From assembly GCF_003334315.1 (NCBI RefSeq), contig NZ_QOWR01000081.1: DNA of 13,511 nt, one strand, 5' to 3'. Source of the stretch: Escherichia coli (GTDB lineage Bacteria; Pseudomonadota; Gammaproteobacteria; Enterobacterales; Enterobacteriaceae). Both the position numbers and the translations under genes were made by a program. The notes beneath the pieces are model-generated. The model did not search any database, was not told the DNA's origin, and saw only the letters and a list, made by a program, of their open reading frames with translations. Each line of letters opens with the position of its first letter. Within the stretch, counting starts at the first letter, position 1. This document shows positions 1 through 13,511 of the stretch, piece after piece.

Positions 1-76
1 CCCCGGCTGAACCCTGAACAATGCTACCGCCATACTGCGTCATGTCGCCCTGACGCGCTGCCGGTTTTCCGCTCAT
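1..76 (-). CDS. rhsA: Rhs-family protein, 5' end only (first 25 codons; gene continues beyond the window start)
   Basis: Reverse complement of 1-76 translates from ATG (76..74) as MSGKPAARQGDMTQYGGSIVQGSAG, the conserved N-terminus of E. coli Rhs core proteins. Divergent from yibF as in K-12 rhsA (symbol from synteny recollection). Confidence 0.65.
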   Translation of the reverse strand, partial: MSGKPAARQGDMTQYGGSIVQGSAG

Positions 77-304
77 CTGCTCATCCTTGTTTTATCGGGT
101 TATTTGTCTGCTTCCAGGCAAAACCCTACAGATTTATAAGAAAGCCTTAAGTGAGATATCCATCAGATAGAAACAATTAGGAAAATATTTATATCACCAT
201 GATAAATATGTGATTTATTTGGAAGTAACAAACCATCAACATTTTCTGCCCTTTTTCCCATCACCAGGCCATACTGATATTTTTCCTCGCACAAAGGACT
301 CGGC

Positions 305-913
305 ATGAAACTCGTCGGTAGCTACACCAGCCCGTTTGTACGCAAACTTTCTATTCTGTTGTTAGAAAAGGGCATAACTTTCGAATTTATTAATGAACTG
401 CCCTATAACGCGGACAACGGCGTGGCGCAATTTAACCCGTTAGGAAAAGTGCCGGTGCTGGTGACCGAAGAGGGCGAATGTTGGTTTGATTCGCCGATCA
501 TCGCTGAATATATTGAATTAATGAATGTCGCTCCGGCGATGTTGCCGCGCGATCCGCTGGAGTCGTTGCGGGTGCGCAAAATTGAGGCACTGGCGGATGG
601 CATTATGGATGCCGGGCTGGTATCGGTGCGTGAACAGGCGCGTCCAGCGGCGCAGCAGTCTGAAGATGAATTGTTACGCCAGCGGGAGAAAATCAACCGC
701 AGTCTGGATGTGCTGGAAGGATATCTGGTCGATGGCACACTCAAAACCGATACGGTCAATCTGGCGACTATCGCCATTGCCTGTGCCGTCGGATATCTCA
801 ATTTCCGCCGCGTTGCGCCAGGCTGGTGTGTCGATCGCCCACACTTAGTCAAACTGGTCGAAAACCTGTTTAGCCGCGAAAGTTTTGCTCGCACCGAACC
901 GCCAAAGGCTTGA
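305..913 (+). CDS. yibF: Glutathione S-transferase-like protein YibF
   Basis: 202-aa ORF, AAAGGA 8 nt upstream of ATG; translation ([28 protein letters not shown]...) matches GST N-terminal thioredoxin-like fold and my recollection of YibF; position upstream of selA. Confidence 0.85.
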
Positions 914-968
914 TGCGCGATATGTCCTCCTGACCCATCTCACGTTACAATCCGTGGTTATGTTAAAC

Positions 969-990
969 GCCCTTCTCCGTGTGAGAGGGC
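969..990 (+). promoter_or_regulatory. Hairpin in selA leader (8-bp stem with single bulged T/U, 5-nt loop CGTGT); candidate SECIS-like SelB-binding element or yibF terminator
   Basis: GCCC-T-TCTC / CGTGT / GAGAGGGC read directly from sequence, 21 nt upstream of the selA ATG; function inferred. Confidence 0.3.
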
Positions 991-1010
991 CTTGATCAGC
1001 CAGGTTTCCT

Positions 1011-2402: not shown

Positions 2403-4243
2403 TTATTGCGACTGCCGGACACGTTGACCACGGCAAAACAACCTTATTGCAGGCGATTACTGGCGTAAATGCTGACCGTCTGCCGGAAGAAAAAAAGCGC
2501 GGCATGACCATCGATCTCGGCTATGCCTACTGGCCGCAGCCGGATGGTCGCGTGCCTGGTTTTATCGACGTACCCGGTCATGAAAAGTTTCTTTCCAACA
2601 TGCTGGCGGGCGTTAGTGGTATCGATCACGCGCTGTTGGTGGTGGCGTGCGATGACGGCGTGATGGCACAGACCCGTGAGCATCTGGCGATTTTGCAGCT
2701 GACCGGTAACCCGATGCTGACAGTGGCGCTGACCAAAGCCGATCGCGTGGACGAAGCGCGTGTTAATGAGGTTGAACGCCAGGTAAAGGAGGTGCTGCGG
2801 GAATACGGTTTTGCTGAGGCAAAACTGTTTATCACCGCAGCAACCGAAGGTCGGGGAATTGATGCCCTGCGCGAGCATCTGCTTCAGTTGCCGGAACGCG
2901 AGCACGCCAGCCAACATAGTTTCCGCCTCGCTATTGACCGCGCATTTACCGTAAAAGGTGCCGGGCTGGTCGTCACCGGTACGGCGTTAAGCGGGGAAGT
3001 GAAGGTAGGCGATTCACTCTGGCTGACTGGTGTAAATAAACCGATGCGTGTACGTGCGCTGCATGCGCAAAACCAGCCAACAGAAACCGCCAATGCCGGG
3101 CAGCGTATCGCGCTTAACATCGCGGGTGATGCGGAAAAAGAGCAGATTAACCGTGGCGACTGGCTGCTTGCCGATGTGCCGCCAGAGCCGTTCACACGGG
3201 TGATTGTCGAGCTTCAAACCCATACACCGCTGACCCAGTGGCAGCCGCTGCATATTCACCACGCCGCCAGCCACGTTACGGGACGCGTTTCGCTGCTGGA
3301 AGATAACCTTGCCGAGCTGGTGTTCGACACGCCGCTGTGGCTGGCGGATAACGATCGCTTAGTGCTGCGCGATATCTCGGCCCGCAACACGCTGGCGGGG
3401 GCGCGTGTGGTGATGCTTAACCCGCCGCGTCGCGGTAAACGTAAGCCGGAATATCTGCAATGGCTGGCGTCTCTTGCACGGGCGCAGAGCGATGCCGATG
3501 CGTTATCTGTTCATCTGGAACGCGGCGCGGTTAACCTTGCGGATTTCGCCTGGGCGCGCCAGCTCAACGGCGAAGGGATGCGCGAATTGCTGCAACAGCC
3601 TGGCTATATTCAGGCTGGTTATAGCTTGTTGAATGCGCCGGTTGCCGCTCGCTGGCAACGGAAAATTCTCGACACATTAGCGACTTATCATGAGCAACAT
3701 CGCGATGAACCTGGGCCTGGGCGCGAACGTCTGCGACGTATGGCGTTGCCAATGGAAGATGAAGCGCTAGTACTGTTGCTGATTGAAAAGATGCGCGAAA
3801 GCGGCGACATCCTCAGTCATCACGGTTGGCTGCATCTGCCGGATCACAAAGCGGGCTTCAGCGAAGAGCAGCAGGCCATCTGGCAAAAAGCAGAGCCGCT
3901 GTTTGGTGACGAGCCGTGGTGGGTGCGTGATCTGGCAAAAGAGACGGGTACCGACGAGCAGGCAATGCGCCTGACGCTACGCCAGGCGGCGCAGCAAGGA
4001 ATAATTACCGCGATCGTCAAAGATCGTTATTACCGTAACGATCGGATTGTCGAATTTGCCAATATGATCCGCGATCTCGATCAGGAGTGTGGTTCAACCT
4101 GCGCGGCGGATTTCCGCGATCGCTTAGGCGTAGGCCGAAAGCTGGCAATTCAGATTCTGGAATATTTTGACCGCATTGGCTTTACGCGTCGTCGTGGAAA
4201 TGATCATTTATTGCGCGACGCATTATTATTTCCGGAAAAATAA
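2399..4243 (+). CDS. selB: Selenocysteine-specific translation elongation factor SelB
   Basis: 614-aa ORF with GTP-binding P-loop [11 protein letters not shown] at N-terminus, DxxG (DVPGHE) and NKxD-like (TKAD) motifs; C-terminal winged-helix extension; ends ...LLFPEK as in E. coli SelB. Confidence 0.93.
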
Positions 4244-4296
4244 GGAAATGATTAATTAATTTTTAAAATAAATTAATACAAATTTCTTATGATTTT

Positions 4297-5748: not shown

Positions 5749-7287
5749 ATGACCAATAATCCCCCTTCAGCACAGATTAAGCCCGGCGAGTATGGTTTCC
5801 CCCTCAAGTTAAAAGCCCGCTATGACAACTTTATTGGCGGCGAATGGGTAGCCCCTGCCGACGGCGAGTATTACCAGAATCTGACGCCGGTGACCGGGCA
5901 GCTGCTGTGCGAAGTGGCGTCTTCGGGCAAACGAGACATCGATCTGGCGCTGGATGCTGCGCACAAAGTGAAAGATAAATGGGCGCACACCTCGGTGCAG
6001 GATCGCGCGGCGATTCTGTTTAAGATTGCCGATCGAATGGAACAAAACCTTGAGCTGTTAGCGACGGCTGAAACCTGGGATAACGGCAAACCCATTCGCG
6101 AAACCAGTGCTGCCGACGTGCCGCTGGCGATTGACCATTTTCGCTATTTCGCCTCGTGTATTCGGGCGCAGGAAGGTGGGATCAGTGAAGTTGATAGCGA
6201 AACCGTGGCCTATCATTTCCATGAACCGTTAGGCGTGGTGGGGCAGATTATCCCGTGGAACTTCCCGCTGCTGATGGCGAGCTGGAAAATGGCTCCCGCG
6301 CTGGCGGCGGGCAACTGTGTGGTGCTGAAACCCGCACGTCTTACCCCGCTTTCTGTACTGCTGCTAATGGAAATTGTCGGTGATTTACTGCCGCCGGGCG
6401 TGGTGAACGTGGTCAATGGCGCAGGTGGGGTAATTGGCGAATATCTGGCGACCTCGAAACGCATCGCCAAAGTGGCGTTTACCGGCTCAACGGAAGTGGG
6501 CCAACAAATTATGCAATACGCAACGCAAAACATTATTCCGGTGACGCTGGAGTTGGGCGGTAAGTCGCCAAATATCTTCTTTGCTGATGTGATGGATGAA
6601 GAAGATGCCTTTTTCGATAAAGCGCTGGAAGGCTTTGCACTGTTTGCCTTTAACCAGGGCGAAGTTTGCACCTGTCCGAGTCGTGCTTTAGTGCAGGAAT
6701 CTATCTACGAACGCTTTATGGAACGCGCCATCCGCCGTGTCGAAAGCATTCGTAGCGGTAACCCGCTCGACAGCGTGACGCAAATGGGCGCGCAGGTTTC
6801 TCACGGGCAACTGGAAACCATCCTCAACTACATTGATATCGGTAAAAAAGAGGGCGCTGACGTGCTCACAGGCGGGCGGCGCAAGCTGCTGGAAGGTGAA
6901 CTGAAAGACGGCTACTACCTCGAACCGACGATTCTGTTTGGTCAGAACAATATGCGGGTGTTCCAGGAGGAGATTTTTGGCCCGGTGCTGGCGGTGACCA
7001 CCTTCAAAACGATGGAAGAAGCGCTGGAGCTGGCGAACGATACGCAATATGGCCTGGGCGCGGGCGTCTGGAGCCGCAACGGTAATCTGGCCTATAAGAT
7101 GGGGCGCGGCATACAGGCTGGGCGCGTGTGGACCAACTGTTATCACGCTTACCCGGCACATGCGGCGTTTGGTGGCTACAAACAATCAGGTATCGGTCGC
7201 GAAACCCACAAGATGATGCTGGAGCATTACCAGCAAACCAAGTGCCTGCTGGTGAGCTACTCGGATAAACCGTTGGGGCTGTTCTGA
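5749..7287 (+). CDS. aldB: Aldehyde dehydrogenase B (NAD(P)-dependent)
   Basis: 512-aa reading from ATG 5749 preceded by AAGGAGA (5736-5742); translation [17 protein letters not shown]... with ALDH catalytic signatures (ELGGKSP glutamate motif, catalytic Cys in GEVCTCPSR). The track ORF start at 5611 is an unsupported upstream extension that overlaps the yiaY terminator. Confidence 0.92.
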
Positions 7288-8160: not shown

Positions 8161-9306
8161 ATGGATTTACTGATTATTTTGACCTATGTGGCTTTTGCAT
8201 GGGCAATGTTTAAGATCTTCAAAATTCCCGTAAATAAATGGACCATTCCCACAGCGGCCCTGGGTGGAATATTTATTGTCAGCGGTCTAATTCTGTTAAT
8301 GAACTATAACCATCCGTATACCTTTAAAGCGCAAAAAGCGGTTATTTCTATTCCTGTTGTCCCACAGGTGACTGGTGTGGTGATTGAAGTGACGGATAAG
8401 AAAAATACGCTGATTAAAAAAGGTGAGGTGCTATTTCGACTGGACCCGACGCGTTATCAGGCGCGGGTGGATCGGCTGATGGCGGATATCGTTACCGCAG
8501 AACATAAACAGCGGGCGTTGGGCGCAGAGTTAGATGAGATGGCGGCGAATACTCAGCAGGCAAAGGCCACGCGGGATAAATTCGCTAAAGAGTATCAGCG
8601 TTACGCACGTGGCAGCCAGGCGAAAGTAAACCCGTTTTCAGAACGCGATATCGATGTGGCGCGGCAAAATTATCTGGCGCAGGAAGCCTCCGTGAAGTCA
8701 TCGGCGGCGGAACAAAAACAGATCCAGAGCCAGCTGGATAGCCTGGTGTTGGGTGAACATTCTCAAATCGCCAGCCTGAAAGCACAGCTCGCGGAAGCAA
8801 AATATAACCTTGAGCAGACGATAGTGCGTGCGCCGAGCGATGGTTATGTGACCCAGGTACTGATTCGTCCGGGTACCTATGCCGCGTCGCTGCCGCTACG
8901 TCCGGTGATGGTGTTTATACCCGATCAGAAACGACAAATCGTGGCGCAGTTCCGTCAGAACTCCTTGCTGCGACTGGCTCCTGGCGACGATGCGGAAGTG
9001 GTGTTTAATGCTCTGCCAGGTAAGGTATTCAGCGGTAAGCTGGCAGCCATTAGTCCAGCCGTTCCCGGCGGAGCTTATCAGTCGACCGGCACCTTACAGA
9101 CGTTAAACACAGCGCCGGGTTCAGATGGCGTTATCGCGACCATTGAACTGGATGAGCACACTGATTTGAGCGCTTTACCAGACGGTATTTACGCCCAGGT
9201 GGCGGTTTACTCTGATCATTTCAGCCATGTCTCGGTGATGCGCAAAGTGCTATTACGCATGACCAGCTGGGTGCATTACCCACACCTGCGGCAACCGTGG
9301 CGATAG
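8161..9306 (+). CDS. yiaV: HlyD-family membrane fusion protein YiaV; last about 9 codons are junction-derived, not native
   Basis: 381-aa ORF starting 5 nt after the yiaW stop; N-terminal TM helix, biotinyl/lipoyl-like beta-barrel and long coiled-coil segments typical of membrane fusion proteins; from about 9280 the same nucleotides encode the WcaK N-terminal motif in another frame. Confidence 0.85.
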
Positions 9307-9361
9307 CGCCATTCTGCGCGGGCTTTTAGATGCCATCAACACGCTCTCGCCTGAGGCTGAA

Positions 9362-10537
9362 GTGGATGTGATGAGCCGTTATCCGGTGAGTTCTTCCTGG
9401 TTGCTCAATCGCCCGGTGATGGGCGATCCGCTCTATTTGCAGATGAAAGCGCATAACAATGCGCCGGGCATGGTCGGGCGAGTGAAGAAAGTATTGCGTC
9501 GTCGCTATCAGCATCAGGTGCTGCTGTCACGCGTCACGGACAGCGGCAAGCTGCGCAATATCGCCATTGCTCAGGGCTTTACCGATTTTGTGCGTCTGTT
9601 GTCCGATTATGACGCGATTATCCAGGTGGGCGGATCGTTCTTCGTCGACCTGTATGGTGTGACGCAGTTTGAGCACGCGCTGTGCACCTTTATGGCGAAA
9701 AAACCGATTTATATGGTCGGCCATAGTGTCGGGCCGTTCCAGGCACCGGCGTTTAACCATATGGCAAACTATGTCTTTGGTCACTGCGACGCGCTGTTCC
9801 TGCGCGAGTCGGTCAGCCTTGATTTGATGAAACGCAGCGACATTGACACCTCGAAAGTGGAGAAGGGTGTCGATACCGCCTGGTTGGTCGATCACCACGA
9901 TGACAGTTTTGACGCGAGCTACGCCGTCCAGCACTGGCTGAATGTGGCGCAGCAGCAGAAAACCGTGGCGATTACCCTGCGTGAACTGGCGCCGTTTGAT
10001 AAACGCCTGGGCACCACGCAGGAAGCCTACGAAAAAGCGTTTGCGGGCGTGGTAAATCGGATCATCGCCAGCGGCTGGCAGGTGATGGCGCTCTCTACCT
10101 GTACGGGCATCGACAGCTATAACAAAGACGATCGCATGGTGGCGCTTAACCTGCGTAAACATATTCAGGACCCATCGCGCTACCACGTGGTGATGGATGA
10201 GCTTAACGATCTCGAAATGGGCAAACTGCTGGGCGCCTGTGACCTGACGGTCGGTACGCGTCTGCATTCAGCAATTATCTCCATGAACTTCGGAACACCG
10301 GCGATTGCGATTAACTACGAACACAAATCAGCGGGCATTATGCAGCAACTGGGTATGCCGGAAATGGCAGTCGATATTCGCCATCTACTGAATGGCGACC
10401 TGGAAGCGATGGCGGCAGACACCTTGGGTCAACTCTCAACGCTTGTGCCGCGCCTCAATGACGCGGTAGCGCGTGAGCGCGCGGCGGGGCTGGCGATGGT
10501 GGAATCGGTATTAACGCGCATCGGGGAGGGGAAATGA
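9362..10537 (+). CDS. wcaK: Colanic acid biosynthesis pyruvyl transferase WcaK, 5'-truncated (homology begins at 9281 with no start codon; first in-frame starts are GTG 9362 and ATG 9371)
   Basis: Frame-2 translation from 9281 reads [20 protein letters not shown]..., the conserved N-terminal motif of polysaccharide pyruvyl transferases (PF04230-type); the frame is closed by TGA at 9260-9262; stop overlaps the wcaL start (ATGA). Confidence 0.8.
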   Translation: MDVMSRYPVSSSWLLNRPVMGDPLYLQMKAHNNAPGMVGRVKKVLRRRYQHQVLLSRVTDSGKLRNIAIAQGFTDFVRLLSDYDAIIQVGGSFFVDLYGVTQFEHALCTFMAKKPIYMVGHSVGPFQAPAFNHMANYVFGHCDALFLRESVSLDLMKRSDIDTSKVEKGVDTAWLVDHHDDSFDASYAVQHWLNVAQQQKTVAITLRELAPFDKRLGTTQEAYEKAFAGVVNRIIASGWQVMALSTCTGIDSYNKDDRMVALNLRKHIQDPSRYHVVMDELNDLEMGKLLGACDLTVGTRLHSAIISMNFGTPAIAINYEHKSAGIMQQLGMPEMAVDIRHLLNGDLEAMAADTLGQLSTLVPRLNDAVARERAAGLAMVESVLTRIGEGK

Positions 10538-13158: not shown

Positions 13159-13360
13159 ATTTTTAGCCGAACCCACCTCTTCAGACGCATTCTCGGATTG
13201 TATCCAGAGATTTAGCGGTATTTACCCGATACTATGAGAAAACATAGTGGATCAAACAACGTTAATAGCTATAATTCATCAACCGTATATAGGTGGACAC
13301 GATAATGGGTGATGATGCCAACTTACTGATTTAGTGTATGATGGTGTTTTTGAGGTGCTC

Positions 13361-13420
13361 CAGTGGCTTCTGTTTCTATCAGCTGTCCCTCCTGTTCAGC
13401 TACTGACGGGGTGGTGCGTA
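13361..13420 (+). promoter_or_regulatory. JUMPstart-like sequence with degenerate ops-like core, downstream of wcaM (upstream of the next polysaccharide locus)
   Basis: Begins CAGTGGCT (13361-13368) and ends GGGGTGGTGCGT (13408-13419), resembling JUMPstart ends (CAGTGGCTCTGG...GGGGCGGTAGCGT) as recalled, but the 8-bp ops GGCGGTAG is not intact. Confidence 0.2.
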
Positions 13421-13511
13421 ACGGCAAAAGCACCGCCGGACATCAGCGCTATCTCTGCTCTCACTGCCGTAAAACATGGCAACTGCAGTTCACTTACACC
13501 GCTTCTCAACC

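Follow-up and report, generated by a model that had tools for sequence, protein, structure and literature searches.

The start of an Rhs toxin gene at the Escherichia coli rhsA site: a Tse5-like N-terminus, a layered rhs-yibF gap and two candidate control motifs

Introduction

Which gene begins at the very edge of a sequenced fragment, and what might switch it on? The question is raised by a stretch of 13,511 nucleotides of Escherichia coli DNA (hereafter the window), at whose left end an initial annotation placed the start of an Rhs gene, on the minus strand and divergent from yibF. The K-12 rhsA element is said to have been described by Feulner and colleagues, and the site has reportedly been on record since 1990. 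In the survey of Jackson et al. (2009), the yibF-yibH interval is one of the E. coli rhs loci (locus 10). The locus is already known, being the rhsA site between yibF and yibH, and our finding is correct but ordinary: this is a textbook polymorphic-toxin and recombination site, and its significance extends little beyond the right annotation. What we add (a boundary map of the gap, a reading of the N-terminus as Tse5-like and two motif candidates) is refinement rather than discovery. Taken as a whole, we are confident that the best explanation is the one that combines the identity of the gene, its Tse5-like layout, a three-layer gap, and probable control of the RcsB/BglJ and ArcA types. Of this, the identity of the gene, its continued frame in relatives, the boundaries of the island and the conservation of the motifs are shown by sequence; docking on a type VI spike, cleavage of the N-terminus, both promoters and the binding of RcsB and ArcA are inferred.

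The gene at the left edge

On the minus strand, positions 1-76 (GC 0.62) translate exactly to the Rhs N-terminus MSGKPAARQGDMTQYGGSIVQGSAG, as had been proposed; 25 codons lie inside the window and the open reading frame runs on past its left edge. These 25 residues match K-12 RhsA, RhsB and RhsC, which are the same over their first 60 residues. Many E. coli chromosomes are 100% identical to positions 1-1000 and have yibF annotated beside an Rhs gene, and part of 1-304 finds a match in a median of three places per E. coli genome. Given the identical K-12 starts, the 100% chromosome matches and this multiplicity, the Rhs start is not a chance call. The same annotation called the N-terminus invariant. 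That stands within the E. coli RhsA-D clade, but RhsD departs from it (S18P and others) and the rhsE pseudogene has no such start; the word is thus to be taken as clade-wide, in line with the clade-specific Rhs N-terminal domains of Jackson et al. (2009).

The call had been said to fall if the sequence beyond the edge did not continue as a YD-repeat frame. It does so continue in strain GE3, which is 100% identical over window positions 1-1000 and in which the frame spans 4,236 bp, or 1,411 amino acids. In a profile search, the C-terminal 1,200 residues of the GE3 protein matched RHS_repeat at least 12 times (E <= 0.001), the RHS core domain PF03527 at E 3e-15 and, at the tip, DUF4329 at E 3e-38. 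Across the records that are 100% identical, the frame continues as an Rhs protein of 1,377-1,411 residues with RHS repeats, RHS core and a variable toxin tip. The conserved N-terminus, together with a repeat core and a tip-plus-immunity layout (the last two seen in relatives), places the gene among the Rhs/YD-repeat polymorphic toxins, in the RhsA-D clade. On these comparisons, the main Rhs gene of the rhsA site, where an accessory island separates yibH from yibF, has its 5' end in positions 1-76.

Is the gene whose start we see still alive? This copy may be inactive, since the window holds 25 of its codons only and in two of the three nearest genomes the gene is an IS1-truncated pseudogene. 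The three genomes that match the window best (2017.04.03CC, L6-21 and ECZP248) are 100% identical to it over the shared 9.3 kb; in L6-21 and ECZP248 an IS1 lies inside the rhs gene beside yibF, and both copies are annotated as pseudogenes without a C-terminus. The window itself terminates in an IS1 copy and carries an abnormal join, which points to a source lineage that is IS-rich or rearranged. Promoter and start codon could then be relics of a dead gene, cut by IS1 or disrupted otherwise. Against this stand an intact rhs gene of 4,134 bp, plus yibA, in the third genome, 2017.04.03CC, a full Rhs protein annotated in most of the 100%-identical records, and the lack of any defect within the 76 bp or the leader. 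We regard a dead gene as a sizeable possibility on the lesser side of even, and we go on with the start of the main rhsA-site toxin gene.

The N-terminus and a presumed type VI link

What would these first residues do? Residues 2-29 (GKPAARxGDxxxxGGxIxxGxxxVxIG) align to the last of the three repeats found in stand-alone PAAR proteins (9rce_c, E 9e-4; 4jiv_D, E 0.011), and it is the third repeat of the spike-tip proteins VCA0105 (4jiv_D), c1882 (4jiw_D) and SalCis10 (9rce_c) with which they pair. The Pfam model PAAR_motif (PF05488) stays below threshold (E 0.13, residues 2-20 against model positions 51-69 of 70). A PAAR domain would be recognised by a significant profile match and three repeats, and here we find one repeat only; where the stand-alone proteins have three, the single repeat of the Rhs protein is a third of the canonical cone and cannot build a whole one. 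The 25-residue start is therefore, on sequence, best called PAAR-like. It opens a 47-residue N-terminal fragment, and its 25 residues lie in the part of the toxin that is presumed to dock on a spike.

From residue 48 onward (PVNPLLGAK...) the protein aligns with the shell chain of Tse5, starting at residue 1 of 8cp6_B (E 5e-16), and Pfam places a DUF6531 plug at residues 46-123 (E 3e-18). Tse5 (PA2684 of Pseudomonas aeruginosa, PDB 8cp6) is cleaved at K47|P48 (Gonzalez-Magana et al. 2023). The corresponding residues read H47|P48-VNPLLG in the E. coli protein and K47|P48-VNPMLG in Tse5, and the short-N-terminus layout of the Tse5 type, with about 47 residues, a P-V-N-P-x-L-G motif and a DUF6531 plug, is what we find. 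Both proteins would thus have a 47-residue fragment, P48-VNPxLG, a DUF6531 plug, a YD shell and a self-cleaved C-terminal toxin, the E. coli side of the comparison being read from sequence. They differ at residue 47 (Lys in Tse5, His in E. coli), and their toxin tips are unrelated. In our model the first 29 residues make up one PAAR-like repeat that would dock on the VgrG spike of a type VI secretion system (T6SS), and the conserved P48-VNPLLG motif sits where Tse5 is cleaved. After the motif, by homology, would come the DUF6531 plug, then the shell of YD repeats and last a C-terminal toxin, variable and self-cleaved, which a downstream immunity protein would neutralise.

We rejected the prePAAR/Eag class for this protein, since transmembrane segments, a long N-terminal region and an Eag gene are all lacking. 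A member of that class is Acidovorax citrulli RhsB, which is cleaved near D280 and has EagT2 as its partner.

Does the docking reading hold beyond E. coli? DNA encoding MSGKPAARQGDMT was found at 19 loci in a scan of one genome per species, in Escherichia albertii, Pseudocitrobacter, Lelliottia, Enterobacter, Trabulsiella, Yokenella and the betaproteobacterial Acidovorax/Paracidovorax; in every such locus that could be read further, the 47-residue module is followed by PVNP or PINP. A vgrG gene on the same strand ends 81 nt upstream of rhs in Pseudocitrobacter and 43 nt upstream at Lelliottia locus 2, and these VgrG genes match TIGR03361 at 546 and 86 bits, respectively. The upstream vgrG in these two genera supports, by gene order, a T6SS link.

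To our knowledge, K-12 has no T6SS. Around the rhsA site of E. coli we found no vgrG near rhs in either GE3 or K-12, so that the gene there is an orphan, whereas Tse5 depends on a specific VgrG. The peptide might accordingly be no docking module at all, and the orphan RhsA-C might act without a T6SS, in the envelope, in capsule export or as an intracellular toxin/immunity pair. Such a role would suit the sub-threshold Pfam result, an EHEC analysis that assigns no VgrG exporter to RhsA-C, and the crosslinking of RhsA to the KpsD capsule-export complex, which we take as it is cited in Jackson et al. (2009); residues 1-29 of Tse5, moreover, are not resolved in the cryo-EM map, which leaves their fold unverified. 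Yet PAAR spike-tip proteins are the sole significant matches for residues 2-29, the layout is collinear with that of a T6SS effector, Tse5, and in two other genera vgrG directly precedes rhs genes that have this N-terminus. We thus think a T6SS-free role of the peptide unlikely and keep to the spike-docking reading of the PAAR-like repeat.

The rhs-yibF gap

The neighbour of the Rhs gene is yibF, a glutathione S-transferase-like gene at 305-913 on the plus strand, with a full-length match to NCBIfam PRK10357 (E 7e-123). The two genes diverge, and the gene coordinates confirm the 228-bp gap (77-304) that had been reported between them. In comparison with the K-12 rhsA element, the window shows the same chromosomal site, the same flanking genes, the same 60 N-terminal residues and 97% identity over 1-304; the differences are a few leader substitutions and one nucleotide in the interval between Shine-Dalgarno sequence and ATG.

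Alignments divide the gap into three layers. The first, at 77-194, is the AT-rich leader and promoter region of rhs (minus strand), with a GC content of 0.34 as against 0.62 in the coding start; it is common to rhsA, rhsC and the rhs gene of E. albertii, at about 95% identity. In fact, positions 1-194 match rhsC of both K-12 and EBJ003, and a further match (H66) also covers 1-194, while the rhsB leader has only short blocks in common with that of rhsA. The second layer, at 195-267, is island DNA specific to the rhsA site, absent from rhsB, rhsC and island-free genomes, and GC stays at 0.34-0.36 across the whole of 77-267. The third, at 268-304, is 37 bp of core-genome DNA beside yibF (plus strand; GC 0.49), found in all E. 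coli. Each gene keeps its own AAGGA Shine-Dalgarno sequence: that of rhs lies at 84-88 on the minus strand, 7 nt before the ATG, and is kept upstream of the homologs in all aligned genera; that of yibF lies at 294-298 on the plus strand, within the core DNA. The gap would thus be a mosaic, of a leader carried with the rhs element, site-specific island DNA and core yibF DNA.

How widespread is this arrangement? All of 1-304 is present in about 69% of 5,426 complete E. coli genomes; in about 30% of them, ST131 included, the match starts only at 268 and there is no island. Alignment with these island-free genomes sets the island boundary at 267/268, and window position 268 is K-12 coordinate 3761992, an engineering site. 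In ST131, yibI, yibH and yibF are co-oriented, with yibF 70 bp downstream of yibH (positions 5968-6037 of the ST131 locus). The divergent rhs/yibF layout is therefore present in the window as described, but it is strain-specific, since about 30% of E. coli are island-free and have yibH and yibF on the same strand. From the boundary it also follows that the upstream control DNA of yibF beyond -37 is wholly different in island-bearing and island-free strains.

An exact 9-mer, GCCATACTG, occurs twice, at 29-37 in the rhs coding start and at 268-276 at the boundary between island and core. We considered it as an integration or deletion scar and rejected this: it is missing from the junction on the yibH side, and one such repeat is about what chance would give. 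A search of the whole window against Rfam found no family at threshold, which argues against a known riboswitch or small RNA in the leader.

Control of rhs and yibF

What might turn on the Rhs gene? On the minus strand at 178-191 lies a box, TAAATATTTTCCTA, that matches the RcsAB box at 11 of 14 positions, with its RcsB half, TTTTCCTA, facing rhs. Salscheider et al. (2014) predict BglJ-RcsB sites at rhsA and rhsB and give wwTTCykA as the core and TaAGaatatTCctA as the RcsAB box. Our box has this core in common with the BglJ-RcsB/RcsAB boxes, fits the RcsAB consensus (the rhsB copy at 12 of 14 positions), points its RcsB half toward the gene as they do and is kept upstream of its target; for rhs it is a predicted site.

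A match to the 14-mer is by itself not significant in the window, being reached in 93 of 200 shuffles. The box is, however, conserved where its surroundings are not. Its position is -109 in rhsA, rhsC and E. albertii; rhsB, Lelliottia locus 1 and Enterobacter MAG 1 have it at -95/-96. The sequence surrounding it cannot be aligned. In every pairwise local alignment of the 200-nt upstream regions it is the single best match, with a score that 0 to 9% of shuffles reach. Outside E. coli, the box-bearing copies are orphans downstream of acetolactate synthase; in the vgrG-linked rhs copies examined (Pseudocitrobacter and Lelliottia locus 2) the box is absent. We tentatively put forward, as a conjecture about which we are ourselves somewhat doubtful, that a box some 100 nt before the start codon is a dedicated switch of the orphan, vgrG-unlinked rhs genes of Escherichia, Lelliottia and Enterobacter. 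If this were true, stand-alone Rhs toxins would be expressed in step with Rcs envelope-stress signalling, or with the counter-silencing of H-NS by BglJ-RcsB, and not with the programme of a T6SS gene cluster. In either case the conserved RcsB-type box offers a testable handle on how normally silent rhs toxin genes are switched on.

It was a reasonable inference from the layout that the gap should hold both divergent promoters. A standard scan of 1-1100 for sigma-70 promoters and terminators let nothing pass in 77-304, and a relaxed promoter scan gave three candidates, whose assignments are all putative. In the rhs direction, a TATAAA at 133-138 (minus strand) would imply a transcription start near 126; it is kept in rhsC and reads TATAAC in E. 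albertii. An extended -10, TGaTATAAA, at 188-196 (minus strand) is the top-scoring candidate in that direction, occurs in rhsA only and would imply a start near 181. Both hexamers lack the conserved final T, for which reason the one at 133-138 is graded weak. If transcription did start near 126, the box would lie about 58 nt from it, as against a usual distance of 52-79 nt. The rhs promoter would probably be weak and activator-dependent, using the box at 178-191.

For yibF, the candidate is an extended -10, TGaTATTTT, at 275-283 on the plus strand, with an implied start near 290; the yibF promoter would then straddle the island boundary. A Salmonella yibF reporter begins at -31, and at the corresponding position the E. 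coli sequence has no convincing -10. The ROSE supplement has no entry for either yibF or rhs, and a minor-sigma SELEX peak lies inside rhsA, outside the gap.

The initial annotation had also pointed to a short inverted repeat, ATCAC...GTGAT, at about 196-219. The repeat is there, but at 193-197 and 210-214, with its arms 12 nt apart. The gap contains 10 inverted repeats with 5-bp arms and loops of 3-20 nt, where dinucleotide shuffles give 5.6 +/- 3.0. A perfect 8-bp pair, ATATTTAT at 185-192 and ATAAATAT at 202-209, is marginal, being reached by 7.4% of shuffles, and the whole set of AT-rich inverted repeats at 185-214 (the 8-bp and 5-bp pairs) is not kept in the rhsC and rhsB leaders. That ATCAC...GTGAT is the operator of a dimeric regulator acting on divergent rhs and yibF promoters is very improbable: it sits mid-gap, inside a locally palindromic AT-rich patch, and its arms overlap the TG of the extended -10 and a -35-like hexamer of the top rhs-direction candidate (rhsA only), but 98.8% of shuffles contain at least one such 5-bp repeat, which puts it at chance level, its arms are missing in the rhsC, rhsB and E. 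albertii leaders, their order (TCAC...GTGA) is the reverse of that in a CRP site, and we found no support for it in the literature. By eye, we rejected a CRP site on this reversed order of half-sites and a Fur site on its poor match. The inverted repeat would best be dropped, the RcsB/BglJ-type box and an ArcA-type repeat appearing to be the better regulatory candidates.

This ArcA-type direct repeat, TGTTGATGGTTTGTTA, lies at 226-241 (minus strand) in the island DNA and consists of two TGTT(A/G)A elements whose centres are 11 bp apart, which is the layout of an ArcA box. We take TGTTA to be the ArcA half-site. The pattern has one match in the window against 0.01 expected, a figure to be read with the fact that the pattern was picked after the site was seen. 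Upstream of yibF, Park et al. (2013) predicted an ArcA box (>= 15 bits) and saw no ArcA ChIP enrichment; loss of arcA raised yibF 2.2-fold in their mutant. The repeat at 226-241 fits both this prediction and the derepression, and we regard it as a candidate ArcA repressor site for yibF, which would probably be repressed by ArcA.

An abnormal join and signs of recombination

The abnormal join of the window lies at 9280/9281. There the window leaves yiaV 17 bp short of the stop codon and enters the colanic-acid gene wcaK, out of frame, at codon 8, and wcaL and wcaM follow; microhomology at the join does not exceed 2 bp, and it has no IS element. The yiaV and wcaK loci are about 1.6 Mb apart in K-12, and in K-12 coordinates the join would be a lethal 1.6-Mb deletion. 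Among the 5,426 complete E. coli genomes it occurs in none. Being both absent from these genomes and lethal as a K-12 deletion, the join is either an assembly or data artefact or a rare translocation.

At 13308-13511, just downstream of wcaM, lies the left end of an IS1 that runs off the window, and the closest genomes are IS1-rich. This IS1 end accounts for the thousands of plasmid and chromosome matches to the whole window. One match (H27) that seemed co-linear with the whole window was rejected as an artefact, in which the IS1 piece had been joined into the same place.

The description of Rhs loci as hotspots of polymorphic toxins and recombination fits the rhsA site, with its variable tips, immunity genes and orphan toxin fragments. 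Records identical over window positions 1-1000 carry tips of the RhsA, RhsB (DUF4329) or RhsC type. K-12 has the order rhsA-yibA-yibJ-yibG; in GE3, rhs is followed on its 3' side by yhhH, yibA, two orphan Rhs fragments, yibG and an Imm57 pseudogene, then by yibH-yibI-mtlA. According to Vlazny and Hill (1995), as reported in a citing paper, yibA neutralises the toxicity of RhsA-CT. At 8539-9869 of the GE3 locus, an RhsB-type tip (DUF4329) and yhhH stand directly before yibA, the immunity gene of K-12 RhsA, which is there without its toxin tip. From this arrangement, the rhsA site of GE3 is a clear case of C-terminal displacement that left an orphan immunity gene behind.

Seven loci of Acidovorax/Paracidovorax, betaproteobacterial plant pathogens, carry the 47-residue module of MSGKPAARQGDMT followed by PVNP; their upstream regions are GC-rich and have no RcsB-type box. 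These betaproteobacterial copies imply, as far as sequence can tell, that the short-N-terminus Rhs class has spread widely by horizontal transfer.

Trabulsiella odontotermitis, finally, keeps a 23-codon remnant of the rhs 5' end described here at positions 4075-4143 of its locus, with the real start 216 bp downstream, at 4291 onward. Judging by this remnant, the conserved 5' end of rhs genes, like the 3' tip, may have undergone recombination or displacement in the past.
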